NCBI RefSeq assembly: GCF_037042905.1
Contig: NC_087250.1
Location: forward strand, 22,570,001-22,634,000
Reading direction: 5' to 3'
Length of the DNA: 64,000 nt
DNA from: Lytechinus pictus
Lineage: Eukaryota
The notes beneath the pieces were generated by a model. That model had not been told where the DNA came from. It saw only the letters and a list, made by a program, of their open reading frames with translations, and did no database searches. A program made the position numbers and the translations under genes. Every line of letters starts with the position of its first letter. Position 1 is the stretch's first letter. This document shows, in pieces, positions 1,083-64,000 of the stretch.

Positions 1083-1091
1083 GTAAGTTCT

Positions 1092-27228: not shown

Positions 27229-27294
27229 GTAAAGTAACTTTTGGCCCCAAATTTTCTTGAAGCTAGAAACATTTTGAAAGCTTTTGTTACTTAA

Positions 27295-28897: not shown

Positions 28898-28970
28898 ACT
28901 GACTTTAATAAAGTTCGATTTCCTAACCTACTGGTACAAATATTTTTCTTCCTTGTCTCTTGCTCTTCAG

Positions 28971-30637: not shown

Positions 30638-30643
30638 AATAAA
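30638..30643 (+). promoter_or_regulatory. Candidate MFAP1 polyadenylation signal AATAAA (alternative at 31764)
   Basis: Hexamer downstream of the 3' UTR repeat array; no transcript evidence available. Confidence 0.3.
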
Positions 30644-31091
30644 TTTGTATTGCAAGTTAATCTAGATGTTCTTCTGGGTGCATTGAGATTCCTTCATAAT
30701 GAAAAATAGATATCAAATCTTGGTTGTTACTTCAACTCTCAGCCTATACAGGGTCTGAAACTTGAGACTAACATCATTCATGTGCTAGCACAATGGGCAC
30801 ATGAGCACTTTTAAAAGCAAACAATGGGCCCAGGGCTATGTCATTGGGCTGTTTGGCTTTATTCAAATCCTGAACAATAGAATAAGGTCATGTGGGGGAT
30901 TAGTATTGTAAATAGGGAACTCTGAACTGAGTTCCAATCTAACCTTGGTGTGTATGGTCTAGGTTTACATCCAATCGGTCTACAAGCAGATAATGCTTTT
31001 GAACACCATCATGGCTAAACCCACTTGGTCGACTATCAGTTTTGTCTTGGAGCCGATTGGTCCAACCATCACATGACCTGATTGTTATTTA

Positions 31092-31263
31092 CAGGGGTGT
31101 GAGATTAACGATTTTTAGCTGATTTTTTATTTTGATTTTCAGCTTGATTTCAGCTTATTTTGGTTTTCCTCTGTCAAAAATTATGGGAGCACTTTCAATT
31201 TTACCTTTTTTCAATACTCAGCTTTTTTTCAGCTTGTTTAATTTGTGATCACCCACACTCCTG
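31092..31263. mobile_element. Diverged copy of the CAGGGGTGTGAG MITE
   Basis: Flanks TATTTA / CATTTA (6-bp TSD with one mismatch). Confidence 0.7.
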
Positions 31264-31959
31264 CATTTATACCTCAATCACATTGCCCTACGGCGAGTCG
31301 AAAACAACCGTTTTAACAGTTTCTGTACCAGCTGCATAGGTGGTTTGAATAAATATGAATAAAACAACTGTTTTTGACTCATCGTACGGCCACCGTAGAG
31401 CAAATGTGACTGAGGTATTAGTCTCGTAGTCTAATTCCCACTTTGTCTGTTTGTTATTTTTTACTTTGTCAAATGAAAATTTTGTTATTTTTTCATTCAT
31501 CTATTTGTATAGACAAAGTGATGTTATACCAAGTGACTATTAGATGAAATGGTATAGCCTTGGTGGAAATTACTCAAAGTGGTTTATATGTAAATGGCAC
31601 TTAATCAAGGTATTGATACATAGAACTTTCATTGATCATGTATGTTGAGTGCTCCAGACTTTTCTGTAAACTCCTTAAATAAGAGATGTAATGATTCAGT
31701 TTTGTGCAACAAAGTTGTTGCATGGTATATATATAACTGTATAGAATTAATTAAAGACTTGTAAATAAATTCATATTAAAACAAAACCTGTCTTGTATTT
31801 CTGTGTGTTTGATACTTGGTTGATTGTTCCTCTTCAATATGCTAAGGGGAGTTTTAACTGGAGATTGTTTTGATTCGTAATCAAGTGTTTTTAGACTGAA
31901 AATTAAATTGAGGGAGTTTAGTAAAGAGGATACGACAGCCGAAAAAGAAGTAGATATTA

Positions 31960-38547: not shown

Positions 38548-39229
38548 ACCCCAAGTATTTTCGGGGGGGGGGGGGGTGAAAAAGTAGGCCCTTTTCGTGA
38601 GGGCTTTCTGAATAATGAAAAGGAACTTCAAATTTGGGGGGGGGGACACTTTGCTCACAGGTGCAAAGTTTACCCCCCCCCTCGATCTGAGCTCCTTCTT
38701 GCATGTTTAAAGATAAGGTGCCTGGCGAACTGCTTAGTAATATTCGTCAGTAATATGTTCCAGGAAGTGGACCTAAAAATCGTTATTCAACTGTTTGTTT
38801 TACTTGTGTGTACATAATTTCGAGTATCCGCATGGACCCGAACATATTTTTAAAGGGCCCTAGTTCCTTGTCTTGACAGTAGGCCTACTTGGTTTCCAGA
38901 ACTAGAAACAATTTATTATGTCGGTAGTGTTGCGTTTCCTTATCTTACATTGTTTATGTATTACTTTTTTTTCTATAAATACCAAATTGTGTGGATACTC
39001 ATAGTTTGAAACAAATAATACGCCGGATCGGCGGCGATGCGCGAAATTTTCAAGAAAGTTTGAAAGTGCCCCACCCCTTTCTAATATCCGACAGAGGCCT
39101 CGAGATGGCGCTAGTTTACAAGGTCCTTTTTCGCTGTTACTTTCTCTATTGTATTTCAAGGCGTACAGTTCAATAGAGATTGCGCCCTATTCCCGTTTAT
39201 CGCAGCGAATGAAAACCCGCTATGGCAAA

Positions 39230-39392
39230 ACTGTGTTGTAATTTTACCACTCAATTTTGTACGCCCAATGCGAGACGCCGTGTGCTGCATGCATTGCAAT
39301 GTTGGATAGTTATTTTTAAGTTGTTTCCGTGATTATTTGATTAGGATAGTTTGCTGACAGTTCGGATTATAAGTACTGGCATTTCTTGTGAG
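39230..39392 (+). other. Probable non-coding first exon of a downstream gene (start approximate)
   Basis: Locally CpG-enriched non-repeat segment (39000-39300) ending in a strong GAG|GTAAGT donor at 39393; no convincing ORF. Confidence 0.45.
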
Positions 39393-39559
39393 GTAAGTGA
39401 AAATGTTTAAATTTTGTTTTTGTTCATTTGAAGAATGAAATTCACCTGATTAGGAAGTTGGTTCTCGATCTGTCGACTCGACTCGAGGCGAGCTCTCGAG
39501 TCGCAGTCGATTCGACACCTCAACCTGGCCTGAAAGTGAGACTGAGAGATTGATTTGAG

Positions 39560-40637: not shown

Positions 40638-41654
40638 TTTTTTCTCCACGCCCAACTCTATCGAAATCTATCAAAGTCCTGTTGACTATTAAACCTTGAT
40701 GACCCTCTTGTTGACCTTGGAGATTTGTTCACCCTCACTTTTTTTTCTTCTGAACTTGTCGTTTTCCAAGGCAAGGGATTCATCGTTTTCATTGACGAAC
40801 ACAATCAGGGTCCGTGTTTGACAGGCAGGCCCTGTTTTAAGAGTAAACTGTCATATTAAAATCAATTAGAAGTCAACTTAAAATTTCTTCTTTTGTATGC
40901 TCATTACATGTCGAGTATGTATGCAAATTCTTGGAGCAAAAACAAAACTCTGTAGGTGTGTACAAACATTGTATGAGATCACTTTTATAATGAACATGTT
41001 CATAGTGGATGTTCAAAGTGGAGTCATATATGTAGTCTTCACTCTGCAAACACAGACCCTTACTATCAGTACTGTAAAATCGGTCTTTGATGATAGAATT
41101 CTTGAATATCTGGTATACCAATTTTAGACCTGGCTTGTAAGCAACATGTAAAGTACACAATCCCCATTCAAGTCCAGTAGTTTTAAAATTCTGACCAAGT
41201 CTGTAACATGTTTCAGCAAACTAGGGTTTGTGCCTGTAGACTAGAAGTCATCCATTATTCAGCTGTTGTAATGTCTGCTCAGATGGTGTGTTAGGCTCAT
41301 TAGAAGGAACAGATAAACATTCCAACCTATTAACAGGGCCTGATTGCACCAAGATAAAATCATTTTCTCAGATTCTACATGTACATGTACAATGTATGTT
41401 GAAGGAAAAAAAATTCATGGGGGCTGGCTGGGGGCGATTCAGCCCCTGATAATGCTCCAAAGAGCCCAGGAAAATAATTAAAAAGGAGCGCTACACCATG
41501 TAGAAATTTCCATGCATTGCAGTGTTAAAAGCTTATCCATTGTTGCAGATTGAGGCAGTATATTAGTTGTGAAAAGTAGTCCCTTGAAAAAAACAAATTA
41601 AAAAAAATCATTTGGCTGCTAGATCCCATTCTCATTATACTTTTTCTTGAACAA

Positions 41655-42120
41655 GGACCCCGTTCTCATTACGTTTTCTAAAACTACACCATGTACAAGT
41701 AGTTTACTAAAAACCCGTTCAGGAAAACAGTTTGGAAGATCACTTTGCTAGCGTTCCCATTTGATCACCCAAAAGTGGTTTTCAAAACCACTTCATGTAA
41801 AGCGGTCTTGTTGCTATGGGAACACTCAGTGGGGTGACATGTTTCACGCAAAATTTTTAACTGCAGCGTAGGCATTCCACATACAGTGAGTAGTGTGCTC
41901 GAAATGTGCAAAGATCGCTTCCTGAAGAACTGCTGTGTTCTCACTTACACTTAAACCAGTTTAACGAGGCAAAGCGATCTTCAAAACTACATCACGAGGT
42001 GGTTTTCTGAACCAGTTTGGGAGATCGCTTCAAAGACCGCTTCGACCGTTCTCATTACACGCTAAACTAGTTTCCACTATTTAGTACCCAGTTTTAGGAC
42101 AGTAGTGAGAACAGTGTCTT
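41655..42120. mobile_element. Interspersed repeat/MITE with an inverted partial copy at ~48995-49330
   Basis: Termini GACCCCGTTCTCATTA / TAGTGAGAACAGTGTC. The interior matches the reverse complement of 49000-49330. Confidence 0.6.
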
Positions 42121-44850
42121 AGTTTCCACTAAAAAACAGATTTCCAGTAAAATAATTTTAGTACTGAAACGAGAAAGAGGTCATTGAGCTGGCTTATGTA
42201 CACGTATAGAAATAGAAGGAAAGGTGAAGTGTTCTTCAAAAAGGTCTAGCATAGAGCAAATCTCCTACAGGTACATGTAGGCCCATTTGTTTTGGGAGAG
42301 TCAAGTTAAATCCGAACAAAAGTTGATTTGAATGAAGAGAGAGAGGGAGTAAAATACACATGCTTGTAAAGGCTGATAATTTCTCCAAATCGGATGTGAT
42401 ATTCATAGAAAGATATGACTTTTAATAAAAATGTTGCTTTATTTCACACAACAGTTTATAGATATTATGCACATACTGGTTTGTACATGTACATGTATGC
42501 AAGTGAGAGGATGAATGACACCACCCACTCCCATTCTCTATATGAATATGATATAAAATAAATTATGTCTTTTAAACAAAGATTTATTCATCCCTGAACA
42601 TCTGGCATTACCATTGATTTAACATTTTGTGGTTCAATCAAGAGAGTCCTTTATACTGGTATTTTCAAATATGTAAAATTTAAATATTGTTAATTCAAAG
42701 TTCAAACAATAAAAAAAAAGAAGAAATATTGAGTGAGTGGCATCATTGACTTTCAGGATTTGCATCATCAAGTTGTGCATTTTACCATTTTGTGAAAAGA
42801 AAAACAAGCAAAATTGTAAAATGTTATCATAAAATCTTCATCCCATTTTGATGAAATTTTATTCTTGTTTTGATTCTCTTTTTTTCAGGATTCAAATCAA
42901 CTTTATATTTTCTGGGGTGGATTTGCCTTTTAAGCTTTTGAGTGCTTGAGCTGTAGGGTGTGTAAAAAGTGAAAATGTACATGTACCTGTATGTTCATTG
43001 TATACACACACTATACGTGTGCATGTACATTTGTAAATGTAAATGTGCAAACAATGGATGTTACAATTTACATTCACCGATGAAATAGTTTGTTGTTATA
43101 GTACAGGTATCATTTATTTTCATTTTATTTCACCTTTTTATTTACTGTGGATGTGTATCATCATCATCATCACCATCACCACCAATACCATCATCATCAT
43201 TACCATTTTGACCCCCACTACCACAAAAGGGTCTTTGCAAGGACGTGTACTTGTATCTTCCACATGTGGGTATTCCAAGTATAAATAAAAGTCTGATAGT
43301 GGAGACTAGCTGTACATTAGTAGGATAATGGTGGCTGGTAGTGACAGCCAGGCATCAAGTAAAAGCCTGTATGATCAAGTCTAAAGCATGCATGTGGCCT
43401 GAAACACCTGTAGACCGGTACATCTTGCACTCTAGGGGATTTCCCTGGTAAGGAGCCATCCGCATTCCATGTTCCTTTCATGCTAAACATTTCCCCCAAA
43501 ACAATGACTCAGATATCAGGAACGATTCTGCTGATTGGAGATGGACGCACCAGCTCAAGTCCCAAACTACATGTACTCGACTCATAAAGTCTGGTTTAAC
43601 TGTATACATGTACATGTAGGCCATGGCCTATTAAACTCTGTTGAAATTATTGGAGACCAATAATTTCAAGATCACGTTTGCACTTTTATCTTCCCTGTCT
43701 TAACTTTACCTTCTTTGTCATAAATGGTGAACAAAACTTTCAGTATTATTTCCAAGATTCAGTTTAATACGAATGATTCAAGTGTCACTGTATGGCAGCA
43801 CTTGTACTGTATAGAATGTGTTGGAGAATACATAGTTTATAAAGACGAACCAAGTACTTCAACTTGTACCGGTAATTGATTTCTTCATACATGTATCTAA
43901 ATTTATGATCAATGATTCAATGGTTTACATGTAACATATACATGTACATGTATTATTTTAGTTTACATGTAACTTTGGAAACAAGGTACTGTACATGTAC
44001 TTGTAAGTACAGTGTGTACATGTTAATAGTAGATACAGTATTCATAAGACCACCAATATGAAACTGAAATTTTTGAAGAACAACTAGAATTCTATACAAT
44101 TTTATTGCCCTTGTATTCAAGCAGTTTTGAAAGGACAACTTGAGTATCTATAAATCTATTTTATAGAGCCTGCAATTGAAGGCTTCCAAATGTTTTGTAT
44201 GTAATTTTGTGTATGCAGTTGGGACAGAGCTTATTCTCCCCCCTCCCGGAAAAAAAATTACATGGGAGGGGGGGGGGGGGCGGGGCTTATAGCAATTTTG
44301 TTGTAGAATTACTTGAAAGAGCCCTGGAAAATCCCCATGTAATACAGCTTATCCGATATTGCAGATTTAGGCAGTAATTTGTGAAAGTAACCTCCGAAAA
44401 TAAAAATTCATTTTTGCCCATCTCCCCCAAATTGGCAACATTTATAATTTTTCTTGTTGCTGCATGAAATGAGAGATGATCAAAATACTAAATAGATTCT
44501 AGAAATATGATTTGTATGAAAAAAGTGAAATTTTCATCACATCACCAAAATCAAAAATAATAAATAATCCCAAGAGATACCACCTGCATGTACATGTACA
44601 CTGTAACATTGAAACTTAATTTTTCATCAGAGAATCTTTTTGGTATTTTCTGAAAAATAATACCTGCATATTTTATACGAGAGTAATTTCAATCTGACAT
44701 TGACAGTGAATTTGCTGACTGACTATACAGTAATGTACCCGCATATATGTATGGTTCAGAACTTCAGATTTCCAGTGAGCACTATATACATACACTGTAC
44801 GTGTACATACAGTACCGTTTACCTGGAGACCAAAATAAACCACAACTTAA

Positions 44851-47149
44851 AGGGATGATCCAGGGACTCGATTTTAAGGCGCGCGAGAGCGATCGCGCGC
44901 TACATGCGCGCCTTAATCCATTTTTGGTAGCGTGATTAATAGCGCACCTCGCGATAGCTAACCTGCGCGAAAATGCCTAAAGTCGCCCTCGAAATCACCC
45001 AAAATCATGCTTTCGGGGGCGACATAAAATCTGAATGTCGCCCCCGAAATTATTGCCGAGTGATAACAACTCAACGGCCCACTAGTGCCATATGCTCGAG
45101 CTCCGCTTACCATTTAAAAACCATCCAAAATCCACACTCAAAATCACGAATAAGCCTTAAAAGTAGCGAGTAGCGCAGTTTCAAATTCCGAAGTTGCGTT
45201 ATTTTTTCTGTACCACGTATTTCCATACACATGGTACCAGGTATGGAAAAAAAAATCAACGCAACGGTCGGGAAAGAGTTGCATGTATAGGGATCCATTA
45301 TGACTACCACCGTGTGCCATTTCGAATGCACATGTTTCCCCTACAGATATCACAATTCTGTGATAAAATAATTCGAATTACACAGGAAATAAATCCCAGT
45401 CTAGTAACCTAGCATTGGTGAGTTGTCATTCGGCTTTGCTTTTCAAAACGGCTTATTAACTTCCAAAATAAGTTATCTAATTTATCAATTATAACTAAAA
45501 AATCATTTGTTTTCTTTTTCTAGGGGATGAGGTATTATATCAGACAATAAATCATCAAACAAAGCTCCATCTTTTTTACAAGGACGGCGGCAGGCTCACG
45601 CATTGGCGCTTTTACTAGCTAGCCAGTTGGAGCTCTGTCTCTCTGCCAGAGCTCTGGGGGACAATTCGCTCAGTAAAGGCCTCAATGATGGTGATTTTCT
45701 GTTTCAGACAGAGTTTACATTTCAGGAATATTATTCAAAACTGCCAATAAAGTTTGATGATTTCTTCATTGTCATGTACATTTAAGTTCTTAATGAATAC
45801 ATTCTCACCAAATTTAGACTCCCCCATAGAGAAATTAAATTTTCATGGAGATCTGCGTTTTCAAAGAACTTCAGGAAAAGTTAGGGTACGTAAGTGGGCC
45901 TTTATTACATGTACATGGCTGACTAGGGTATTGTACTGGAATAAATGGAGTAGAAATTATATATTGAATTAATTTATATCCAAGTCCAACTCACAGTCAC
46001 ACACACACGCACACACCCACACACACCCACCCATCCACACACACCCACATCCAAGATTCTAAACATGATAAATAACTTTAAAAATCATACAATATTAAAC
46101 AAAAAGTAATAATTCCTTAATAAGTGAACAGGTATTCCTCAAAATACAAAAAAGTAGCATTTAAAAAGAGCCCCTCAAATTTGACAAAAAAATTAAAATG
46201 GAGCCCCCGAAAAAAAAAAAAAAATTGTCAGTGACTTAACTTTTAGCCAAAGTCAAAACCTAACTAAAACAGGTTTTACAACACACAATCTAATTACAAT
46301 ACATTGTAAAACAATTATAAATACTTCCTTTGGTTGTTGATTGTAATTTTATAGTACATACATTTCCTCCATCCATTTTGTTAATTGGGCAAAAAGCTCC
46401 CCTTGTATGTTGAAGAAGAGCTTTTTGAAGTGCTCCTCTACCGCTCTCCTTAAAAGTTCTAGGAGAGCTTTTTATTGCTCCCCTTATAATTATAAAACCG
46501 AGTCCCTGATGATCCAGGCTGGAAATATTTGAATCTTTAATAATAAATAGAGTAAAATTCACAGAGCAAAATGCTGAAAATTTGATCGAAATCGCATAAC
46601 AAATAAAAGTTATTGAATTTTTAATTTGCATTATTCCGGTGAAACAGTTCTAGGCATGTCTTTATGAATATTCATTAGGTGGGCTGATGATGTCATATCC
46701 CCACTTGTTCTTTGTATTTTATTATATGAAATTAGGTTTATTCAAAATGTTTCTACCAAGAACTATTAAAAAACAATTGGATTGACAACTGATTACATGT
46801 ACATGTAAGTGCATTAGTTATTTTATTGCCACAACTTATTTCATCATAATGGAGACACATCATTTACACATGTATGAAAAAATGAAATATTTATGATTTC
46901 ATGTACTGGTAATGACATCTAAGGAATGTGGGGATGTGACATCATCAGCTCATCTAATGAATATTCATGATGATATGCATGTAACTGTTTTCACAAAATA
47001 TTGATAAACTTTAAAATTCAATAAGAATAACTTTGTTTATATTTGTTATCCGATTTCGATGAAATTTTCAGCATTTTCCTCTGTGAATTTTATAATAGAA
47101 TTTTGGTCTATTTATTTAGATATAAATATTTTCAGCCCGGACCATCCTT
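44851..47149. mobile_element. Kolobok-like MITE (TTAA TSD) whose left TIR is split by a CAGGG element
   Basis: The reconstructed left end AGGGATGATCCAGGCTGGAAATATTT matches the reverse complement of the right end AAATATTTTCAGCCCGGACCATCCTT-TTAA. Confidence 0.8.
44861..46508. mobile_element. 1.65-kb non-autonomous element, TIR CAGGGACTCG(A/G)TTTTA, 6-bp TSD ATGATC (hAT-like)
   Basis: TIR pair visible; ATGATC at 44855-60 and 46509-14. Confidence 0.85.
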
Positions 47150-50100
47150 TTAATGCGGGTCCATGGTTTTAGACATGGGTTTCTGTGCCACATATACTTG
47201 TATTCACTGTAATGCAAATATGGTTTCTTATTTTGGTTTTGGTTTTTACATCTTTTGTTGTATGTAGGCTAATTGCATTGAGCACAGTAGTAACACTTGA
47301 GAGACAATCAAATTGTCAGAGCTGTTCTTAAAATAATTGTCAAGTACTTCCTTCTTACATGTATTTCAAATTCTTGTGAGAACCAGTTTCTTCCATTGTT
47401 TTGGACAACTTCCATATTCATACACATACATACATACAGAATACAGTGTGTGCTGTATTTTATAGAATCTAATTTTGAGAAATGCATGTAATTCTCAATC
47501 ACTGGACAATATACCTGTACCAGTCTTGCCAATCATGTACAGTGTTACATGTACAATGTATACTGTGTAGGCCTTCATGTACATCATGTTTCTCATGAAG
47601 TTGTATTAAAATTGGAGAATTTACATGGAGGCTGATGCAATTTATAAAGCAAGAGAGAAAATCAACAAGCTTTGAGCCTGGGTACATGTACTGTATATTG
47701 TTGAAACATAAACAGAAAAGAAAATTATGATAATATTCACATGAAAATTTGTTTACAAATTGCTTGAGAACATTTCATATTTGTACACAACAGACTAGAT
47801 TTAGACACTGTGTTGTGTTCACACAGAAGTAGTGTACATGTAGAACCCTATTTCTAGAAATAACTCATTCTTGACCTTGCTGGTCTGCACAAATCTACAT
47901 ATATGTGATCAGCCTTTCCGTATATTACATGTTGGCCTAAATACAGTAGGCCGAAATGTACTGTTGTGTAGGCCTATTTGTGTAACCATCAGGAATAGCT
48001 CCATTGTGTATTACTCTTGAAATTGCATGTAAACCCATGGGGACTACAAACGGAACTGAAAGTGAAATGGGCATTGTTTGTTTATCAGCCTGGATCTCTA
48101 GTCATATCCTGGGCTATTATGATTTCCTCATCGTAAGTGGCCTGATTGCTACTCATGCTCGGTACTTGTTAGTGTTGATTGATTGATAAATGTGTGCATA
48201 CATGTACATACCTGTTTGCCACTACTGGGCCTCGTCTTGCAAAGAGTTACGATTGATCCGATCAACCTCAAATATATGAAAATCCATCAATGACATAATA
48301 TTTTTTAACAGGAAATTTACACAAATGTCTTTGTAACAAAGAGAAACACTAAGTTGATTTTTTAAGAAAAAGATGGGTGTATTGCTTTCAACAAAATATT
48401 TTTAATAAACATGCATTTTAGATTTGACATTGCTCGCTATTTGTGATTGATTGGATCAATCGCAACTCTGTGTATTAAGACAGGGCTCTGGGCTATTATA
48501 TTTCCTCATCATAAATGGCCTGATTGCTAGGTACTAGTGTTGATTGATTGATAGATGTATGTATACCTTTCTGGTTTTGATTGGACTTGCTCAACAATGC
48601 TTTTCTCAAGATTTGATGAAGAGTCTTGATTCAAGTTTGATTGTTTTGTATTCATTCAGGTATTGTTTATAGAGATCTGTAAAATTATATTTTCATGTAG
48701 GACTTTGTGCTATGGATGAGATGAATTCACAAAGGGTGCACGGACGGGACATCACTGTCGAAGATATGGGGGGGGGGGGGATGGTCTCCCAAAGTTCCAT
48801 GACCAAGAAAAATAAAATAAAGTTGTGTCCCCCAACGTTTTTGGCTCAATTGGTCTTTTACACATGTGCAAAATGGACAAAGAAGTGGACATGTCATTGA
48901 AAAATTTTAAAACAAATTTCAGCTTATATACAGTATGTATGACTATTTTCTCACTACATGTACATGTGCCTTCCTAAAACTACAACTACATGTACGTGTA
49001 GTTTAGTGGAAACTAGTTTAACGTGTAATAATGAGAACGGTCGAAGTGATCTTGGATGCGATTTTCCAAACTGTTTCATAAAAACACCTCATGATATAGT
49101 TTTCAAGATCGCTTTGCCTCGTTAAACTGGTTTTAGCGTATTAGTGAGGACACAACCGTTCTTCGGGAAGCAATCTTCTCACATTTTGAGTGGGCTACTC
49201 TACACACTGTGTGTAGAATCATGCCTACGATGCTGTTTCGAATTTTGCAATACCGGTATGTGAATTTTTTTTGAAAACCACTTCCGGGTGATCAAATGGG
49301 AACAATAGCAAAGCGATCTTCCAAACTGGTGAATAGACCTATAGTTGTACTATGTACATGTATAGACACTCGGGCCCGCATTCTGACATCAGGTTTAATA
49401 GACCATGGTCTAACTCTGTGCTATTAAAATTATGGAATTATGAATTTTCCTTACTTTGTACAATACATGTATCTTTCTTACATACTGAGCTCATGAATGG
49501 TGAAGAAAGCTATCTTATTCATCCTTTCGAAAAAGTTAAGAATGATTTGAGAGAAAAATGAGTTGATATATTGAAATTCTACTGTTAAGAGATTTACATG
49601 TATGCCACTATTGGCTATCCATAATTAAACCACAACTTTAAACCAGAGTTTAAATTAAACCCGACTTCAGAATACGGGCCAATATGCTCAAGGCCTGTAA
49701 AGTCTGGTTGTTTTTATCAGACCAGGGACCAGACAGTGCTGAGCTTGTTGCTCATGTATTGTACACTGTACATGTATTTTATATTTGATGTGTTTTATAC
49801 ATGTACTGTACATATATTGCCAATATGATACAGTATACGGTAGGCCTATAGCTTTGTCTTCTGCATGTAGGCCACAAGTAGGCCTACAGTACATGATGCC
49901 CAGCAATTCTGTATGCAGGTGCAGTTGCTGTCATTTCATATAAACCCAGTAAATACCTGTAGTGTTATGATGCAAAGCGAGAGGGAAAGAAAGGAAGGAA
50001 AAGCGAGTAACCGTTGAATTTACTGTAATAGATTTTAGATGAAGTGTGTAATTGTCTAATATCCTTGACATTAGTTTGGTGTGCAAACAAGCATAGGAAG

Positions 50101-51594
50101 AGTTGGTTATTTACAATGGACTCTTTCCAGTCTTGCTCATTTTTTGTTGTTGATACACTGTACATGCACTTGGTGGGTGTAAAAAGCTGTTTTTATTTAA
50201 GTTACAATTGGATGAAAATGCCTGACTGATGACCCTGTTCTTGTGCTACATGATCATGTACAAGTAATTAGTATACATGTGTGTTTGTTTGTAAAGTACA
50301 TGTAAGATTTAGCACTTTAGAACATGTTCCAGTCTTTCTTGAAGTTGTTCAGTTGTACTTGCAGGAACAGCTTTACGACCAGCTTTGTGAAACTCCCACC
50401 TGGGCTCCATAGCACAAAGATTAGCGATCAATCTCTAAACGAGCTAACCAATCAAGATCAACATTACACGCGCATTTGGCGCAAAATAATGACCCGGATC
50501 CAATCAGAAGTGTTCTCTCATACTTGCTATTCATCGCTATAAATCTTTGTGAAACACCCACCAGGTGACTGTTTCATAAAGCAGTTCCTACATTAATAGT
50601 TACAAGCAACTTTACAACCACTGGTGACCCTTTCTTGTGGTCATGTAGGACTATACCATACTGTATACATGTACCAGGTTTTCGTCTAGCTTGATTTAAT
50701 AGTTCCTGAGAAAAGGGTCACCAGTCGTTCATAAAGTTGCTTGTATTCTACATGTACCAACAGCATGAAATACCCACCAGGCCGTTGTACAGTAGTCGTG
50801 GAAGTACTGTAGTACAAATGGCTATGTGACAGTATACAAATAGCGAATAGGCATGAGTGCGATGGTGCGAGATTTCGTATGAGGTGAAAGAAACATGCTC
50901 TATTCAACGAGGCGTTCAATCTTGCACCATTGCACGAATAAGAATATTCGCTATTTGTGTTGTACAACGCCTCGGAGTTTAGCGAAAATATGAAAAAAAG
51001 AAGAGTTTTTCCCTGCAGTAATCTATGAAAAGGGAGCAAAAATATTGAAAGCGAAAAGCAAAATCCCACAAGCGCACATGATCTTGGGCAGCATTGCGCA
51101 TTTAGCCAGCAGGCTATATATGCGTATTGCACCTTCATTTTTACTGAGCGCAATGAATAAAATCGTATTGTAACGTCACCTCCTAAAGTCGTGCAACGGT
51201 ACATTTTGGACGGTACATTTTGACTGGTATGTCGTGTGTGCAACGGTACGAATGTTTGACATTCAGCCTCCCATTTGCTTGTGTACAACAAGCTATTAAG
51301 TAGGCGTTGTACAACATGTGACATTAATACAGACAGTGTACAATACATACCGGTACGTGTGCATATTTATGTATGGAGAAAGGTGTGCATTGTACATGGA
51401 GGCCTACTGTAATCTGTACAGGAACAAACTCACACGTATGTATCCAGACGTCTGGCAGAAAGGGGGAAATCCCCTATTGTTTTTTGGACATTCCCAAAAG
51501 GTCAACACAACACAAGGGGGTAGACTTGGGAAAACAATGGGGGCGAAAACATGAATAATGTCTACTGTTACATTTGCATACTTACATATATGTG

Positions 51595-51777
51595 CAGGGG
51601 TGTGAGAGTTCAGATTTTTATCTGATTTCAGATTTTTTTGTTTTGATTTTCAGCTTAATTTCAGCTTATTTTTGGCCTTCCTCTGTACAAAAAGTATGGG
51701 AGCTCTTTCTATTTCAGACTTTTTCAACACTCTTCAGCTTTTTTCAGATCTTTTTATTTGTGACCACTCACACACTG
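51595..51777. mobile_element. CAGGGGTGTGAG MITE, near-identical to 10086-10269
   Basis: Visual alignment shows only a few mismatches. Confidence 0.85.
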
Positions 51778-53042
51778 ACTGTACAATGTACAAGGCCTAC
51801 ATGTACCGGTACATGTGTTTTATGACCGTGAAGGATATGCTGCACACATTTCTACACCAAATGTGTATTGATCAACAGTGTTCTTGTTTGATCAAGTGGT
51901 TTACCATAGTGTGTAGATTATGAGTTTATTTGCTAACCTTCATGCTTTTGTAATGATGATTCACATGAATAGTGTTGACTACTGTTTGAAAACCTTGGGT
52001 GATACTAGAGGAGCTACATACTGTACATTGTACATGTACATGTAGGTCCGTATTCTGTCCGTATTGTACATGTACATGTCCGTATTGTACATGTACATGT
52101 AGGCCCGTATTCTGAAGTCAGGTTTAACTTAAACTCAGGTTTAAAGTTGTAGTTTAAATATGGGAAGCCAAGAGTATCTAATTTTTATTAAGTTGTATAT
52201 GTTTCCTATGTTTACTGTGCTCTTTCCTGATTCATCGATGGTGAAGACAATAATATATAAATGTATACTTCCTAGACAATTATGAATGATTTGAGAGCCA
52301 AATGAGCTGAAGTATGATATCTCTACTGTTAGTGATTTATGTAACAATTGGCTATCCATACTTAAACCTCAACTTTAAACCTGAATTTAAGTTAAACCTG
52401 CTATCAGAATACGGACCCATATCAATATGGCAGGGAATGTACGTGTAGGCTACATGTACATGTACATCAGTGTAGTACATGTACATGTACAATGATTCCC
52501 AAATCTGAATACATGCTCCAAACATTTATGCTTTGAGGCGACCATTTTTTTCAAAATCATTCGCTACTTTGAGTTTTTGTGCTACATGTACAGTGTGCAA
52601 ACAATACCGTACCCTAGAAAGCATGTTTGATCTTTAATGTACTGAAAATTTTATTAATTAATTAATTAATTAATTAAGTTATTTATGTATTTATTCATTC
52701 ATTTACATGTATTTACTTATTTATTTATTTGTTTATTTATTTATTTATTTACTTATTCATTAGTTTCATTTATTTTTTAATAAAGAAAAAAATAGGGGGG
52801 GGGGGGCTTTCAGTGTTCATGTACTTTGCAGGAATAAACATGTACATGTACACGTACAGTACTTGTACATGTAGTACATGTACAAGATTTGTGTCATTTG
52901 TTTTTTACCATCTGTACCAGCTGTTAAATTTTAGTCCTTGAACATTTGATTTTGTACCAGTCGTAAAAAATATTGGGCTGTCTATTAAATTTATTATTTC
53001 TTGAATACTAAAGTTTTTTTTTTTTTCTTTTTTTTCCTTCAG

Positions 53043-53079
53043 AATCTCTTGACATCTTTGAAGTTGTGAAAGTTGTAAT
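53043..53079 (+). other. Candidate 37-nt internal exon, probably 5' UTR of the downstream gene
   Basis: Long polypyrimidine tract plus CAG acceptor (53014-53042) and a GTAAGT donor at 53080. Confidence 0.5.
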
Positions 53080-54985
53080 GTAAGTATTGAATGTACAGCA
53101 ATTGTACACATATTTTATTTTTGTTATAATACTACCTGTATTTGAAAAAAAAGATGTATTGGCAGAATATAAACAATTTCATTTCTTTCCAAAATTATTT
53201 ATTTCACCCATAGTTTAAAGTACACGCATCATGCAGTTGTATGAGTTTTTATTGACCAAGTAAAAGATCTGGGCCCTGTCTTTCAAAGAGTTACGATTGA
53301 TCCAATCAATCGTAACTCTATGGAAATCCATCAGTGTCATAATTTTTTTCTACAGGAGATTGGCACAATGTCCTTTGTAAACAAAGAGGAGCACAGTGAA
53401 TTTTCAAGAAAACATTGAATGCATTCAGAACATACACATCATATTTCGAAAATATTTTGGACAAACATGCATAATACATGTTGACGTTGCTGGCCGTCCA
53501 TAGTTGCGATTGATTGGATCAATCATAACTCTTTGTTAGATGGGGCCCTTTATTCCCTTTTTACAGTGACCCATTTCATCACAAGTAATTAATTAAATGA
53601 TGGCATGGTATTGGTGATACTCGGCAAAATGGACTCTCGTAAATTTGCGCCCGATCTCCAACGAGTTGCAGATGAATGATGTGTCATGAGGGAAAAAGGA
53701 ATAGAATTGAGCCCTTTAAAAACATGGACAGATTAAATTGAAGTCGCCTTTCTTGATTTTGGATTTTCCCATTTGGTACATTGTACATGTACACGTAGCT
53801 CTCCATCTGAGGGTTTTCATACAAGGACCTAAAGCCTGTAAAGGAAGGATTGCAAAATTTTCTTTGCTTTGGAAGTACAAGTAGTAGTACATGTACCTTG
53901 TCATTACATGGCAATAGAAAGCATGTGAAGTGTCCAATGGGCTGTCCATGTTTAAAAAATTATCAGAGTGACTTCAAAATCAAGAAAATTTAAAATGAAT
54001 AGCCAGATCATTGGCTATTTATTAAGAAATAATCTGGTTTTAATGTGTATTGTTGAGTACACATTGTGCTGAAAAAGTCATGAAAATAACATAATAAGTG
54101 TTGTACTCGAACATTGTACCCAAACTTCCGAGCCCTCCACTTCTATTTTCATGGACTATTAAAAAGCTGGCCTCATGCACTCTACGCGCCGGTACATGGA
54201 GTCATGAACGTATAATGTATATGTAGCAAGACCAATGCTACATGTATATTGTGAAGTTGGTGAAATTTACTGTAATCTGTCATTCAGTGACACATCTCAA
54301 TGATTTCACGTTCATGTGAAAAGCCTGTACAGTGTATCCACATGTACACTGTTACTCCAGGGCGGTGTTACACAAAGATTTAAGTATGACTTAAGTCGCA
54401 CTTAAATGCCGACACGTACATGATATGCAACGCGCGATCTTATTGATAGATACGCAGTAGTGCACGTCCTCATGACACGTTCTGACCAATGCGGTCAAGC
54501 CTTTCATACCTTACGCAACTCGGTATTTAAGTGTGACTCTTAAGTCATACTTAAATCTTAGGTCATACTTAAATCCAGCTTCCCTGGCAGTGGCATCTCT
54601 GTCTCTGGCCCTCTTTCTCCTTGATTTGTTTTTTTCCTTGCTTTTTTTTTTAATCCATAAAATTCATCATTGGCTTTCTCTGGGATCACTTGTTTCTAGT
54701 GGGCAACCAACAGGTTTATACATTTCATTCATGAGCAAAGTCGTGACATTGGCAGGGAAGGGGTTGTTGCATTGAAAATTCTTCATTCTCCGTTGCAATA
54801 ATGTATCCATTGATGATGCAAGTAATACTTTAAAGATGAAGTAATCAATTAAAAAGGCAATTAATATGTGGGTAGATTACACAGATCAGATGACTCATGA
54901 ATGGAGTCATAGTTGTAAAGAGCTTTCACATGGTTTATTGGGCTGCATTTTGATCTTTTATTGCTATAAAGCTTTATGTTTAATA

Positions 54986-56429
54986 TAGGGCTGTTATCGA
55001 TAACGTCTTTATAGCTGGTCTTGTCGATTGCTTGTTTTTTGCCTCTTAGCGATATTGATAAACTTTCTCTGGTTGTTGATAATACCCGCGATAATGTAGG
55101 GACACAGCGATTTTCCACGATTTCAGTTCACGGGAATTCACAGAAACGGCCTTTTGAAAGTGGCTATTGAAATGGATAATCACGGAAAACATATTTTTCC
55201 TCAAACTGCACATAACTGTTTAAAACAGAAATTACTCCAAAATCTCATCAAAATACGAATACCTACTAGTCACAAAACACGATCTCACCCCCACTTCATT
55301 ATAATCATGACAATCCAAACATCGTGACTGCACTTGACTCCATTCAATCGAATCAAAACATCACAAGCACAAGTTCAGTTTTAGCAAAGTTCCAACTAAC
55401 GAAGAAGGCAGCACATGGCCGTGTGTTGCTGCAACCTACGTTTGAAGATGTACAGCACAATATCAAAATGGCGGATAGCCGAAAGACGTTGACTGTTCAG
55501 AACGATGTCCAAAAAGCCCAAAATAATCAATAAAACTTCATCCAACCCTAAAATAATGCTAATTTAAAGGACAAGTCCACCCCAACAAAAACTTGATTCG
55601 AATAAAAAGAGAAAAATTCAACAAGCATAACACTGAAAATTTCATCAAAATCGGATGTAAAATAAGAAAGTTATGACATTTTAAAGTTTCGCTTCAATTC
55701 ACAAAAGAGTTATATGCACATCCCGGTCGGTATGCAAATGAGGGAACTGATGACATCACTCACTCACTATTTCTTTTGTATTTTATTATATGAATTATTA
55801 AATATTTTGATTTTCTCGTCATTGTCATGTGAAATGAAGTTTCATTCCTCCCTGAATACGTGGAATTCCATTATTTTAACATTTTGTGGTTCAGGCAAGG
55901 AGGTCCTAATCGTCAAATTCGTAAAAATTGAAATATTGTATAATTCAAACAATAAAAAACAAAAGAAATAGTGAGTGAGTGACATCATCGACTCTCTAAT
56001 TTGGATGTAACTGGCTCGTTCATATAACTATTTTGTTAAAAATAAGTGAAACTTTAAAATGTCAGAACTTTCTTATTTTACATCCGATTTTGATGAAATT
56101 TTCAGCATTGTGCTTGTCTGATTTTTCTCTATTGATTCAAATCAACATTTTGTTGGAGTGGACTTGACCTTTAAAAGTGAGGATGTATTTTATGCTATAC
56201 GTTTGTTAAAAGATGTTATGTTATCATTTACATGTACATCCAATGAACATGGATTTTAAAGCGTTCTTGGTACAGTGGCCGATACAAATTTTGACCAACG
56301 CGAGTATGTGACATCGCTATAATGCATAAAAAATGCATATTGATTCTTTTGTCGATAGTTATCGATATTGTTGGTAAGATATTTTTAGCGAGACATCGAC
56401 AGAGATTTTTCTTAACGATAACAGCCCTA
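54986..56429. mobile_element. Non-autonomous hAT element (TIR TAGGGCTGTTATCG) with a nested Kolobok-like MITE at 55568-56170
   Basis: 8-bp TSD GTTTAATA at 54978-85 and 56436-43; the right copy is displaced by a CATGTA insertion. The nested MITE is flanked by TTAA. Confidence 0.85.
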
Positions 56430-57900
56430 CATGTAGTTTAATATTAAGGTCCCAAGAATTATTGAATTTAAAGAATAAAGATGGGATGATCTGATATTCC
56501 GTCATCTCAAGGTTTCTGAAATTACATACATGTACATGTACTTGGATCTACATGTTACTTTTTCCTATATTTTCTTGTTGGGGTCAGAATTCCTGATCAG
56601 AATTGGGTGATCTGGTAGTATGGATGTGAAGTCGTAATTACAGTCTCTACAATGAACCAGACAACCTTTAAACATTCTACTCTTATTGTTTTCTCCAAAT
56701 ACAAAAAAATGAAAGAAAGTAGAATAAGTTCAGTGTGCATCTGTCAAGTCCACCCCAGGAAAATGTTGATTTGAATCAATATAGAAAAATCAAACAAGTA
56801 TAATGCTGAAAATTTCATCAAAATCAGAATTATGTAAGATATTAAATTTTATATGCCATTTTTAAATATTCGCTTATTTTTCACCAAACAGTAATATATG
56901 CATGACTCAGTGACATGCAAATAAGAGATTAAATGATGTCCCTCTCTCACAATTTCTTTTGTTTTTTATTGTTTGAAATTTAAAAAATATAATTAAATTT
57001 TTACAGATTTGACAATAAGGACCAACTTGACTATTAAACTTAAAATGATAAAACACTGGTACATGTAGTTCCATGTGTTCAGGGAGGAGTGAAATATTGT
57101 TTCACAGGAAAATAGGGAGAAAAGTGGAATATTTCATATAATGAAATACAAAAGAATTACATGTAATGAGTGAGTGATGTCATCAGTCCCCTCATTTGCA
57201 TACAGACCAGGATGTGCATTTGAATATAACGACATGTATTTTGTGAAATTAAGCGAAACTTAAAAATGTTATAATTTCCTTATTTTACATCTGATTTTGA
57301 TTAAATTTTCAGTTTTATGCTGTTTCTCTTTTTATTCAAATCAACTCTTTGTAGGGGTGGACTATATAAAGAACATACTTTACATGTACATACTGTATAC
57401 AGTACATGTATGTAGTCTACACATTTGAATGAGCAGATTCTACAACATGTAGCATGTTGCAAATGAGTGTAAAATTAATTTACCTTTTATCGTACTACAT
57501 GATCATACATACAATATATTCTTCTTCCTTGCTTTAGTACATTTGAACATGTACATGTATGAGATCCCGCCCAATAATGTAGGGGCCTACATTATACAGT
57601 ACTAGCTTGAACATGAAACATGTTGCAGTGTATTAATGTACATGATGTACAATGTAAGCAATGCGCATGGTATGTATATTCGTCATCAATAGCAATTAAT
57701 ATACCATGTAGATAATGGATTGTCTGTGAGCAGATGGGGCTTGGCAGACGCTCCTGTTCGCATGCTGGAAACTCATTGTAGGTTCTACTTGGTTGGTTGC
57801 CCCTCCCCCTTTCACTCTGACCTGGGCAAGCATAAAGATGTTTGGCATGGATTATGGGCAACTACACATGTACAGTAACTGTGTATGACTTACACTGTAG

Positions 57901-58145
57901 CAGGGGCAGATCCAGGATTTTCCAAAGGGGGGGGGGGCACATTTTCCCCGAGGAAAATTTGACAAGCAAAAAAAAAAGTCCTCACTTGTGTATGAACAAC
58001 ATATTCCCATAAAAAAATATACATGTATGCTGTGACTTTCAAAAGGAGGGGCACTTGTGTTTAGAATGGCATATTTACATTAAAAATGTTGATTATGGCT
58101 CTCAAGGGGGGGGGGGGGGGCACGGGCCCCCTGTATCCGCCACTG
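57901..58145. mobile_element. hAT-like MITE (CAGGGGCAGATCCAGG ... TGTATCCGCCACTG)
   Basis: Imperfect TIR with poly-G subterminal tracts. Confidence 0.6.
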
Positions 58146-59647
58146 AAGTAAATTTCCTGATTAGCCACCCCCCAAAAAAAAAATCATTCCAAAAATGATT
58201 GGGATTGCCCCCCCTCCCCCATTAGACAAAGAAAAATGCAAGGGCACCATTTGTAATAAAACTGCCTGGACCCCGCCTGCATGGTTGATACTGTGACATT
58301 CATTCTGAAGAAATATAGGTCTACATGTACATGTAAGCCCTACACACATGTAATGTACAATGTAAACGCAGGGGGGTGGTACATGTAGTCTGCAAGCAAA
58401 GACTCATATTTGATTTTTTAAAGTACTATTATAAATCATGTCTAGAGTGAAGACTACATGTACTGTAGACTCCAAAGAAGAGAAAAAGAAAAAAAAAAGA
58501 ATAAGTAAGAAATATTTGAATTTTACTTTATATAAATATTTTTTTTCAAAGGAAACAACGTGAATAATACAATATTTATGATGGCGAAAATAGTAAAATT
58601 GACTGGTTGCCAAATAAAAAGAAGAACCCCCCCTCCAAAGTCTCTTTATGTGCCTGCAGAAGAGGGAAGTGGGAGGTTAGATTGCCTCTCCTGTAATACA
58701 CAATGATAATACAGAAATGATAATTATCAGCACTGCAGATGAATTTTATGATAGATACAGATATTTATGTGCATGCATAGTATATGCAGTAGGTTACAGT
58801 GTAGGATTTTAGGCTATTGTGCAGGCATAGACCCTTGTTTTTTGCAATTTCGCATAGTGCATAGTGCATAATGCAGAGTCTGAAGTAGTGAGACTAGATT
58901 CACTATGTACTATGACTGGCTGTACCACAGAGAGAGAGGGCCTTTTCACAAATGAATCTCGAATCATTATTGTAATGATTGCAATTCGTCTTTAATCATT
59001 GGACCTTTCACACGCTCACTCGAAAACTGATTTGAATTCAAATTCTCGAGCGAAGGCGGTATGTGCCCTTGGTGACTTCTTCTTCTTCTGGAAACAGTAC
59101 AGGCCACCGTCTGGTGTATTATTTGTCAATCAAAGCACTGCATCGCAAATACAAACTACGATGAGTGCATGACAGTTGTATATCTACGGAAGTGCTTGAA
59201 AGGTCACGTAAGCTCCGCCCCCAAAAAATGTTTTGGAGGTCAAGCCTTTCACACATAAAAATGTGTACCGTAATTTGAGTGAAACTTAACTGAAATTCAC
59301 CTCTGGAGTAGAATTTAAATTTGTGATTGTGATTAGCTTTTGTGATTCTAATCATGTTCTAATTTGGTTTCTCACATGCTAAAAATTCATCATTAGCCTT
59401 ATTTTTCATTGGAATCATCATTCAAATTACAATTTTGTTTACCTTGTGAAAAGGCGGAATGAGACTTTGGATTCAATGTAATTGTACAAACTGTATAGTC
59501 TTCACATTAGACATGGTTTCAGTTTAAAAAAAGTGTCAAATATGAGTCTTTTCTTGCAGACTACTTTACATTGGTAAATTGCCAATTCGTATACTGTAAA
59601 TTCTTTTCACTCATCATATGGTCTACATACACATGTACATACCTTCA

Positions 59648-61661
59648 TGTTGTAACCCGCAAGTGAAAACCCGAACCGTACCGTCCCGTATAATCCAATA
59701 ATTTGCAAGCGGGACCCGCTGACCCGTCGGGTTTTAACCCGCAAGTAAATTTATCTTTGAAAAATGAAAATTATTTCTGCAATCCCCACACTATACAGGC
59801 TCAAATCACGAAAATATATGCCAACTACTAACCTAGCCTAGAGTGAATTTACTTACAATTTGCAAATTCGCCTTTTATTCCGGAGAGAAAATGTTTTTGG
59901 GGTTACTTTGTACCCGAAATGGGTCGGCTCTGATCTCGTAATCGAAAGCATTGCGCAATTAACTCCTCGGATCGGAGCCGCAGCTCAGCGCGCGCTAGCT
60001 ACATGTAGCCCAGGCTGCCCAGCAAATTCGATGTTCAGTTTCCCGTCGCCCGCCCGCGTTATGAAATTTGGACCGCGTTTAAAAATCAAATTCTGAAAAT
60101 AATTCATTACTTTACTATTTTGACATAGATCTAGATTCAGAACTGATATAAAACATTAATATAAGCTTTTCAGTCACAATTACTTGTATATCATGTAAAT
60201 ACCTGTAATTCTTTTCTTGTTTTTTTTGTGTGAATGGAATGACACTGCATGCTCAACCACACCTCGAGCAATGTTCGTGCAGGCTCCACTCAACTTCACT
60301 TCTGCTACACTACGCTCTACCTACCCGATGTAGCGGTAGTGAAGTGGAGTGGAGCCTGCACGAACATCGCTCGGGGTTTGGTCGAGCTACCTCAATAAAT
60401 CCCATAGTCTAGTAACCTCGCATTGGTGAGTTGTCATACGGCATATCAGACAAAAAAATCATCAAACAAAACTCAATCTGTTTTACAAGGCCGACGGGAG
60501 GCTCACGCACGTACGCATTGGCGCTTGTACTAGCTAGCCAGTCTGAGCTCTGTCTCTCTGCCAGAGCTCTGGGGGACAATTCGCTCTGTAAAGGCCTCAA
60601 TGATGGTGATTTTATGTTTCAGACAGAGTTTATATTTCGGGAATATTATTCAAAACTGCCAATAAAGTTAGATGATTTCTTCATTGTCATGTATATTTAA
60701 GTTATTAATGAGTTCATTCTCACCAAATTTAGACTCCCCCATAGAGAAATGCAATTTTCGTGGAGATCTGCGTTTTCAAAGAACATCAGGAAAAGTTAGG
60801 GTTTGTGGGCCTTTATTACATGGCCAAGTACTGGAATTAGATGGAGTAGAAATTAGATATTGAATTCATTTATATCCAACTTCAACTCATAGTCACACCC
60901 ACACAAACACACCCACATCCAAGATTCTAAGCATGAAAAAAATAACTTTAAAATCATGCAATATTAAACAATAAGTAATAATTAATTTAATAAGTGAACA
61001 GGGATTCCTCAAAATACAAAAACGTAGCATTTGAAAAGAGCCCCCGAAATGAAAAAAGTAGCCTCCAAAACGGTAGAAATGGAGACCCTGAAATATTTAA
61101 AAAAAATGAAAATGGAACCCCCGAAAAAAAATGATTGATTTGCTCCCTGGCTTCAAGACAGTTCCACAGAATAAAAGTGCGTTCAAAGGTTACAAAAGGT
61201 CAAACTTTCATCTTCTGGAAAATAATGAATAATGAAATCCTCATTATGAGCTGGAAAAAATGGGACGGGAAACTCGACATCGAGTTTCATTGGCCTATGC
61301 GATTGCTTTTTACTAGACTGTGCTGCGCTGCACTGGCGCGCGCTCCTTCTTCGAAAGAGCAACTCGATGTATTTATGTCGAACTGTCTCAGTCCTGTCCA
61401 CTGTTCACAAGACAAAAATACGCCAGCATTTTTTTTAAAGGAAATATCTACGTCTCTAAAAGAATCCGCCACGTAAGAAGCACATGATCCTAACTCAATT
61501 TTCATTGTTAATGTTTTTATTAATATTATGCGTCGTTACTTCTCCCCTTTTTTTTGCATGACGGTCTGCGGGTTTGAGAATAAACTCGGCCCGGCCCGCA
61601 ACCCGCGATCGGGGGCATACCGGCAGGTTAACCCGTACCGCAACGGGTGCGGGTTACAACA
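59648..61661. mobile_element. 2-kb non-autonomous TIR element (TGTTGTAACCCGCA), 8-9-bp TSD
   Basis: TIR pair, ACCCGC/GCGGG subterminal repeats, and flanks ATACCTTCA / TTACCTTCA. Confidence 0.8.
60251..60387. repeat. 137-bp hairpin (palindromic mini-MITE)
   Basis: Arms ..GTTCGTGCAGGCTCCACTC.. / ..GAGTGGAGCCTGCACGAAC.. Confidence 0.75.
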
Positions 61662-62840
61662 TTACCTTCATAGTATAATGCCATTCCGTCCATCAACATT
61701 TTGTCTAGTAACCATTTGATCCAATAGCCATTTGTTACAATCATCACTTCGACTATGACCATTTCGTCTCATAACCAGTCGGTCTTATATCCAGTTTATT
61801 TTCTTTCATTTTGCCCAAATAACACATTGTCCAATTAGACCAAATGGTACAATGTATATGGACTTTTAATTGCATTTGGACCAACTGGTTATGAGACGAA
61901 ATCGTGAATGGATGAAATTACATGTACATGTAGACCATTTGGATAGTGGATGAACTGATGGTAGACCAAATGATAGTAGACGAGTTGGTAATTGGACGAA
62001 TTGGTATTAGACCAATTGAAAATAAACCGGTTAGAGTGCCTCTCCGGTATGTTGGTACAGAAATGACAGTTTTCAGCACTACAGATAAATGTTATGATAG
62101 GAGTTTAATAATATTATGCATGCAATACACATTGTACTGTGTACACTGCATACTCTTCCTGTACTAGCCTGGTAATGTAAACTATGAGGAGGACCATGGA
62201 TGGAAATAAGAAAAAAAAGTGATTTTCCATACCCTCTCTTAGCCCCATGACATTAAAGCTTGATGTTTCGTACAGCTTTTACCCCCCATCAAATTACCTA
62301 TACAGATGCCTCAAGGAAGTAATATTAAACACAGTCAGCTATTTAGCCAATAGGAGGATTCCTGTTGTAGGGAATAGTGAAAACGATGTCAGTTTTGAAG
62401 TTACTTTCAAGATATTACTTGTAGGCAGATAAATGGTCTGTGAAAAGGTTTGTTCTTCAGAGGCTCAATTTGCTAGTAGGTCCATGATTGTAGTCAATTC
62501 AATGAACTGTACATATGGACGGATGAAATTCATGTAAATGTACAGTACATGTATTTGGGCTGAACAGTTGCGTGTAGTCCTATTTGTAGGTTTTTGTGTA
62601 GTGCATGTGACTTTACAGCCCCCAAGTAGTTTATTTCTCATCATTTTGGTGATTTCAGAATACTCCAGTGTGTATTATCACGGGAATTTTTAAATTTTTA
62701 TCTAACCTGCATTTCCTCATAACTTTTTACTGTAATTTCGATCTCGTGACGAGACATTGCATAAATTTCTTTTGGAATAGGTACATGTAATTGTCAAGAT
62801 CTACAGTATGAGTTTAGACAGGCTGTGATCTTTCTGAAAT

Positions 62841-63232
62841 TTAAAGATAAATGCCAGTTGTGGTAACGATCTCAAAATGAGTTCAAATAGAATCCAATAA
62901 AATGACCACCCAGGTGTTTGTATGTAAATAAAGAATATGTGCCAAATACCTCTGGAAAAAATTCTGTAATTGCTGAGAAATGAGCAAAATAAGTACGGAA
63001 TTCCGTAAAACGTCAGGTATTTTTCCAAGCAATATTAATACACTGTCCCACGTATGCCTTTTTGTGTTAGTGATCATCAGAATTATTGGTTTTCAGCTAA
63101 GATTTCATAAAGAAGAGGTGATTTTTAATGTACCAGATCTAGATTTATGATAATATAGTGGCAATTAACCGTGATTTTAAAGACTTTCTCATGAAATAAT
63201 TGTTTGCTGCAACTTCTTTCTTTCACCTTTAA
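62841..63232. mobile_element. TTAA-flanked Kolobok-like element, intact relative of 19074-20734
   Basis: TTAAAGATAAATGCCAGTTGTGGTAACGATCTCAAAATGA ... CCTTTAA. Confidence 0.7.
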
Positions 63233-64000
63233 TGCTTCTTCCTCCCACCTGAAGAGTCAAGAAGTTTGAAGTGCAGGTTGGGACCTTCTTGAAATTTAAT
63301 ACTTGTTTCTTGAACCTGAAGAAGTCGAGACGTTTGAAGTACATATCCGTAATGAAAGCACTTTCACAGTGCTACATGATCTCAAGAATCATTATTAAGT
63401 GTAGGCTACTCATTGAATTTTTGGCATTAGTTACATTGCATCATTATCACAGTCTGAAAATATTCATTCATAATATAGATTCTTATTAAAAAGGCTCCAC
63501 ACTATTAAACTTCTTTTCTTGGTGGCCCGATCATTCCACAAAAATCATCAATTTTATATTTTTGGTGGCCCGCAAAGCAAATATGGTGGCCCTAAAAGTA
63601 AAACAATAGAAAACACTACAATTAATCAAAACTTTGGTAGCCCCACTGGGCCACCAAGTGTGGGCTTTTACAGAAGCTTGGTGGCTCGACTCTATTTTTT
63701 GGTTGCCCCGGGCCACTGATAATGTCGAGCCCTGCTTAATACATGTAGCTCAGATTTTATTCATATAATTTTTTTCTGTGCTAATAGTCATCAAGGAATA
63801 TTGTTTGAATCTTTTATTACTCTCAAAATATGAAAAGTTCCACACATACACACACAGTGCATTTATCTTCATCATTTTGAAGCAGCACTTTACTCTGGAA
63901 GAAGACGACGAAAATAATATCCCTCGCCCACTTTTTTTAAATTTCCTTCTTTATTCTTGCTTCTCTTTTCTGATGGGGCAGATGTTTGGCAATATGAACG

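Follow-up and report, generated by a model that had tools for sequence, protein, structure and literature searches.

This locus raises the question of why one short word, TACATGTA, crowds the non-coding 5′ part of one gene and is nearly missing from its neighbour. The window analysed here is a 64,000-nucleotide stretch of the Lytechinus pictus genome (contig NC_087250.1, positions 22,570,001 to 22,634,000, forward strand). Its upstream gene is MFAP1, which is cold for TACATGTA; the downstream gene is p190RhoGAP, as identified from its coding exons (Ras, FF and pG1/pG2 domains). We confirm that the TACATGTA field in front of p190RhoGAP is real, insertional and regionally polarised. The words are six-letter insertions at TA, and we consider it probable that they were left as scars when cut-and-paste transposons of the Tc1/mariner type landed and were excised again. 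Direct observation covers insertions at TA that are copy-specific and occur in varied contexts, stacks in which units of different kinds are mixed, a 5′ domain that is one-sided, and the presence in this genome of elements whose ends fit.

TACATGTA occurs 75 times in the window, 72 times from position 41,376 on and three times in 1-41,300 (binomial p = 3e-29). The initial annotation, which had found such motifs frequent from about 41 kb and sparse over MFAP1, thus described the region correctly, and density across the window is far from uniform. The relevant features are:

1..31800, plus strand: MFAP1 locus with 3 TACATGTA, the cold control within the window
39200..39399, plus strand: likely first exon of p190RhoGAP, non-coding, with its splice donor, predicted from sequence, exon end at 39,393
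41376..63747, unstranded: field of TA-anchored micro-insertions, defined by counts (72 TACATGTA plus CAG/CTG, CA-N-TG, CCGG and CACG/CGTG units)

Between 41.3 and 60.1 kb, the 67 copies of TACATGTA (3.56/kb) compare with 0.7 expected under a dinucleotide model, the null that had been proposed as a check, and with 9.3 under an order-3 model; at plain TA sites in the non-coding front end of p190RhoGAP the word lies about 100-fold above the dinucleotide expectation. Also enriched in this core are TACAGTA/TACTGTA (25 observed, 3.2 expected), TACAATGTA/TACATTGTA (8 versus 0.6), TACACTGTA/TACAGTGTA (7 versus 0.2) and TACCGGTA (4 versus 0.1), while the excess of TACATA/TATGTA is small (35 versus 19). 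Units moreover join into arrays, with 12 mixed stacks in the field where 3.8 were expected and 11 doubles where 2.9 were expected. Two such stacks are:

52019..52044, unstranded: four units of mixed type stacked on shared TAs (CTG, CATTG, CATG, CATG)
52843..52882, unstranded: long mixed stack (CATG, CACG, CAG, CTTG, CATG and so on)

The field had first been placed at 41370..63750. Its presence there stands, but the dense core (41,376-58,467) ends near 58.5 kb, and the 441 kb of flanks are themselves about 15-fold enriched (175 TACATGTA, 0.40/kb, versus 11.6 expected). The window field is a peak atop a genome-wide excess. Genome samples carry 0.2-0.4 TACATGTA/kb, and 20 fixed-step 10-kb samples from five contigs had a mean of 2.25 (45 in 200 kb), corresponding by extrapolation to about 180,000 copies in the whole genome. 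The 20 hot loci, which unlike the fixed-step samples were selected for carrying a triple array, had a mean of 18.1 and a maximum of 75; hot loci also hold GGCC between two TAs 34 times (1.6 expected) and GATC 16 times (3.5 expected). Exact whole-genome counts gave 9,353 doubles and 449 triples, with a flat step ratio near 5%; reversed-pattern controls for these counts were discarded, being phase shifts of the same arrays. Together the units add about 760 bp to 22 kb. It was therefore an overstatement that first introns had been "rewritten", though the field had rightly been placed in the downstream gene's non-coding 5′ part.

The insertion test used sites inside repeats, at which other copies of the family were scored by whether they resembled the version with the unit or the one without it; large control sets were subsampled to 150 ahead of testing. 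For TACATGTA, 20 of 28 testable sites were copy-specific insertions at TA (4/4 in the field alone), as against 1/113 for other TA-N4-TA, 2/128 for TA-N3-TA and 0/96 for TACATA/TATGTA. These figures bear out the earlier claim of insertion at TA and speak against the motifs being ancestral in the repeats. Six of the eight shared TACATGTA sites represent two events in near-identical pogo copies. CA-N-TG sites were copy-specific in 4/29 cases; two TAGATCTA sites in repeats were testable, both shared, and TAGGCCTA had none. The unit is symmetric in form (TA-XY-Y'X'-TA), and at most verified sites the inserted core has no template in the flanks. A derived insertion at TA with the TA duplicated is a mark of a Tc1/mariner footprint, and it was found at the 20 repeat sites as well as between a terminal inverted repeat (TIR) and its target site duplication (TSD). 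A strict BLAST indel catalogue, of low power with its 105 events, gave 0.48 insertions of at least four letters per callable kb in the field and hot loci and 0.17 in cold DNA. Within the window, the following sites in repeats, some of them MITEs (miniature transposable elements with inverted repeats), could be aligned:

54978..56443, unstranded: hAT-type element whose TSD is 8 bp long; six letters inserted at 56,428-56,435 part the right TIR from the TSD
42484..42497, unstranded: double unit in a MITE, a clean gain of 12 letters against the copy near 55,730
45906..45913, unstranded: unit in a repeat, a weak control (tandem duplication, further differences nearby)
46794..46807, unstranded: double unit in a MITE, absent from 5/5 family copies
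49595..49602, unstranded: single unit, a net gain of six letters against 52,334, absent from 3/3 family copies
57060..57067, unstranded: single unit, absent from 3/3 family copies
57158..57165, unstranded: single unit, a clean gain of six letters against the copy near 55,963, absent from 8/8 family copies
61848..61856, unstranded: TACAATGTA, a seven-letter insertion, absent from 6/6 family copies

Apart from 57060..57067 and 61848..61856, these are the internal controls of the initial annotation. The hAT case is exact as described, the double at 42484..42497 does indicate repeated rounds at one site, and the comparisons at 46794, 49595 and 57158 hold. The unit at 45906..45913 is indeed a tandem duplication of TACATG relative to the copy near 60,813, but about 10 further letters differ there.

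This last site speaks for replication slippage, as the low CpG ratio of hot loci (0.50 versus 0.67) speaks for CpG decay, and either of them, or assembly error, might be thought to make the words. We regard this as highly improbable. Slippage does not fit the lack of a flank template or the mixing of units within stacks, although it may add some doubles. Decay of CGCG should yield TATGCATA equally often, and the window has 0 copies. The CpG ratio is correlated with TACATGTA across 40 loci (rho -0.70) and hardly at the 4-kb scale in the region (rho -0.07), and CpG-poor gene bodies beside hot fields contain almost no TACATGTA, so that methylation alone is insufficient. As to assembly error, contigs of an independent run (X1) match 43,898-43,989 with 0 and 43,960-44,235 with 1 other letter and span six motifs; the words are thus no assembly artefact at the tested sites, and there the earlier proviso that they might be missing from raw reads falls away. 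Taken together, slippage, CpG decay and assembly error are largely refuted. A further X1 contig of the same species diverges from the window at 43456-43989 (509 letters over 534, of which 30 differ, plus 39 gap positions); it may be a divergent allele, possibly missing several scars.

Single-change variants number 0.6-0.7 per perfect TACATGTA, so frequent that the words must be decaying; mean decay is up to 7-8%, and most scar events are accordingly old. Within the field, unique DNA is denser in TACATGTA than MITE DNA (4.5/kb versus 1.7/kb), as expected under slow accumulation. The relative behind our comparison runs, about 5-7% diverged, differs at one cluster:

43868..44026, unstranded: cluster of six units; 157 letters in the window, 77 letters in the related species (run X8)

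Run X3 across the same cluster has 97 letters where the window has 187. These data bear on a further explanation. First introns hold enhancers, and words that arose as scars or by other mutation could have their clustering kept by selection as sites for Irx-type homeodomain transcription factors. TACATGTA is cited as the preferred Irx site (PMC3520976, citing Berger 2008), and a Phytophthora Myb protein binds it (PMC11134190). Against this, units lie within young MITE copies and between TIR and TSD, the non-Irx words CAG/CTG and CCGG are co-enriched, perfect words decay into single-change variants, and the 43,868-44,026 cluster is unconserved in the relative; selection on Irx sites thus seems to us quite unlikely as the cause of the clustering.

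The position of the field relative to its gene is distinctive. The start codon of p190RhoGAP lies 18.3 kb past the window end (L002:8281), and the field, upstream of it, sets in about 2 kb after the likely first exon and fades in the 3′ direction after about 20 kb. RNA signal over 40.7-60.6 kb was swamped by MITE paralogues, and the first exon stays a prediction. At other hot fields promoters are predicted; 5/6 of these fields break off sharply where a CpG-rich segment lies and thin out along the direction to which T/A skew points, while the sixth was extended over too short a distance. In an exostosin gene, one other hot field is the intron that follows the first coding exon, a large one. Behind promoters, as far as these are correctly predicted, TACATGTA accumulates 10-30-fold over domains that are one-sided. 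TAGATCTA and TAGGCCTA cluster at CpG-rich promoter-like segments just 5′ of TACATGTA field onsets (at about -96, -80 and -48 kb relative to the window, and at L312 and L317), with 14 TAGATCTA in a single 8-kb bin; in hot loci, TAGGCCTA shares a TA with TACATGTA 8 times (1.4 expected). The window itself has a CpG-rich segment with one TAGATCTA close to where the dense core ends (59900-60130), possibly a second promoter or a repeat.

How might excision have produced such domains? On landing, an element would duplicate the TA; excision would leave behind the outermost two letters at either end, CA and TG, and fill-in and joining would give TA-CATG-TA. Loss or gain of one letter would give the CAG/CTG and CA-N-TG units, and CC-ended pogo elements would give TA-CCGG-TA. 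Each scar would add an ATG-TA or TA-CAT half-site of the kind such elements favour and so draw the next hit, building stacks. The 15-25 kb behind the promoter of some long genes would be hit or vacated far more than other DNA through their germline chromatin state, and full elements would be purged from these 5′ domains, with the scars persisting. The excision enzymology, the chromatin cause and the selection against full elements are what we infer from the pattern.

The genome contains four CA-ended, TA-flanked groups of elements. The youngest is a 1.9-kb DD34E Tc1 (about 260 copies, 99.7% identical, ends TA|CACT, a 364-codon open frame), many copies of which (L041-L070) seem to be inverted head-to-head dimers with outer TIRs in common. 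The others are an inverted repeat/direct repeat (IR/DR) group of about 22 older copies with CAGT ends, a 640-bp MITE with 357 matching ends and 83% pairwise identity, which, like the IR/DR group, we call Sleeping Beauty (SB)-like on account of the IR/DR layout and of general resemblance, and the CAGTGCGT family with 1,621 ends. Pogo elements that end in CCG agree with TACCGGTA, and a MITE of 1,085 bp with perfect CCG-type ends, those of the L153 pogo family, lies in p190RhoGAP itself (L003, window-relative 87,290-88,374). Scar cores therefore equal the terminal letters of TA-targeting elements in the same genome (CA and CC ends), although two letters carry little information. The SB-like MITE has one copy in the same 5′ region of p190RhoGAP and adjoins TACATG at 14/357 ends (1.0-1.8 expected), compared with 12/1,621 for CAGTGCGT and 0/68 sampled for the young family. 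Of the 14, three are located in hot DNA and have scars within the elements, and one copy (L291) occupies a double unit at its middle TA, so that excision of this copy would lengthen a stack. The age of the MITE, judged by identity, is close to scar decay. These abutments show that scars are good landing sites and say nothing on the SB-like MITE as their maker.

Searches for other producers gave little. The young Tc1 family left no trace within the 464-kb region. A PF01359 (mariner) search had no match, its controls being silent too and the result hence uninformative, and the 76 matches to PF03184 (pogo), of which 30 loci were fetched and 20 extended, revealed no CA-ended family. De novo TIR searches in 0.46-1.66 Mb yielded no TA family that ends in CAT, GG or GA; the idea of a CAT-ended element whose sites are joined through AT microhomology is accordingly without support. 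The main producer is probably extinct or was missed by these searches.

Several results weigh against the reading of the words as excision scars. The target preference of no family fits the scar flanks: T stands at +1 in 38/44 ends of the young Tc1, 19/35 of the IR/DR group, 14/26 of the SB-like MITE and 26/28 of CAGTGCGT, but in 9/40 verified scar half-sites. The young CA...TG family that the initial annotation suggested looking for does exist; inserting at A-TA-T (p = 3e-9 against the scars), it is excluded as the main source. A T at +3 (background 32%) is a bias that the scars (23/40) have in common with CA-ended families (young Tc1 26/44, IR/DR 29/35, SB-like MITE 23/26, CAGTGCGT 15/28), and here too the SB-like groups, leaning in the same direction, do so more strongly (83-88% versus 50-57%); for pogo CCG ends the flank sample comprises only 10 ends. 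The MITE's preference for ATG-TA may explain its 14 abutments partly or wholly, third-position preference alone predicting 2.8-4.8 and a hand calculation from the MITE's target flanks about 9-16, and a scar could also form later at the element's TA. Surviving elements sit mostly in cold DNA (0.24, 0.20 and 0.10 TACATGTA/kb; 0.41 for the SB-like MITE). Just 1/6 CAG/CTG and 0/4 CCGG testable sites were copy-specific, the co-enriched TAGGCCTA and TAGATCTA have no identified GG- or GA-ended TA element, and we saw no pair of alleles, one filled and one scarred.

The spectrum of products is a further difficulty. Tc1 of Caenorhabditis elegans resembles the present case in its TA target, its CA...TG ends and in having TACATGTA among its outcomes, where it is recorded as a rare footprint (PMC3520976) and appeared in 3/39 polq-1 revertants of a frame-selected assay (PMC4490562, supplementary file 4). 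Yet 78% of somatic Tc1 scars are TACATA/TATGTA (PMC12632400), the class with 0/96 insertions here, where TACATGTA dominates and has accumulated to an estimated order of 10^5 copies. Sleeping Beauty leaves TACAGTA/TACTGTA and six others, and TACATGTA is outside these eight footprints (10.1101/659086). TACAGTA/TACTGTA is the second commonest class in the field, and SB-like IR/DR elements with CAG ends are present, but 25 copies against 67 of TACATGTA in the core, few of them copy-specific, is no SB-type spectrum. The process works like a Tc1/mariner footprint and fits neither the Tc1 nor the SB spectrum; on this point the initial interpretation is not borne out in detail.

These discrepancies are the strength of another possibility, in which an unrecognised break-and-repair process or a domesticated transposase of the host, with no surviving element, would cut at TA where chromatin close to promoters is transcribed, and would write in a core that is fixed and palindromic. 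A single dominating product, scar flanks that match no extant family, domains tied sharply to 5′ ends and cores alike in form (CATG, GGCC, GATC, CCGG) would all suit it. We know of no host enzyme of this kind. Moreover, TA duplication around a symmetric two-plus-two core is the product of two identical transposon ends, and the CA and CC cores equal real element ends in this genome; we hold a host process to be unlikely. Oomycete promoters, enriched for both TACATGTA and TACCGGTA (PMC3597505), fit it as well. In Phytophthora these words are motifs M93 and M94, abundant near promoters and sometimes tandem (PMC3597505, PMC3520976, PMC11134190); they are read as transcription-factor sites and the footprint idea is dismissed without a test, whereas here insertion could be demonstrated. 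In its broadest and similarly doubtful form, a single TA-duplicating, palindrome-writing process other than ordinary excision of any surviving element would act on the 15-25 kb behind germline-active promoters, feed on its own scars, and have written both the roughly 10^5 fixed micro-insertions here and the oomycete promoter motifs. If so, germline chromatin could be read from the words as from a fossil map, and they would form a mutational signature that is new.

As a rule, excision scars are few and varied. Here they would be of one precise type, in some 180,000 copies by estimate, concentrated behind promoters. If this reading is true, they record far more transposition than the surviving elements reveal, map sites of germline landing or excision, and imply unusually precise fill-in repair. 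A top promoter or first-intron "motif" (Irx-like here, Myb-bound in Phytophthora) may then be of mutational origin. Among the literature matches listed, none reported genome-scale TACATGTA insertion in an echinoderm.

Three features of the MFAP1 side of the window may be added. A broken fragment on the minus strand inside an MFAP1 intron (about 6100-7950), by eye presumably a candidate long terminal repeat retrotransposon polyprotein, is flanked by the arms of a long inverted repeat about 5 kb apart (3700-5250 and 9050-9990). The 3′ untranslated region is filled, at 29090-29900, with tandem copies, diverged and about 125-180 bp long, that stem from the end of MFAP1's coding exon.

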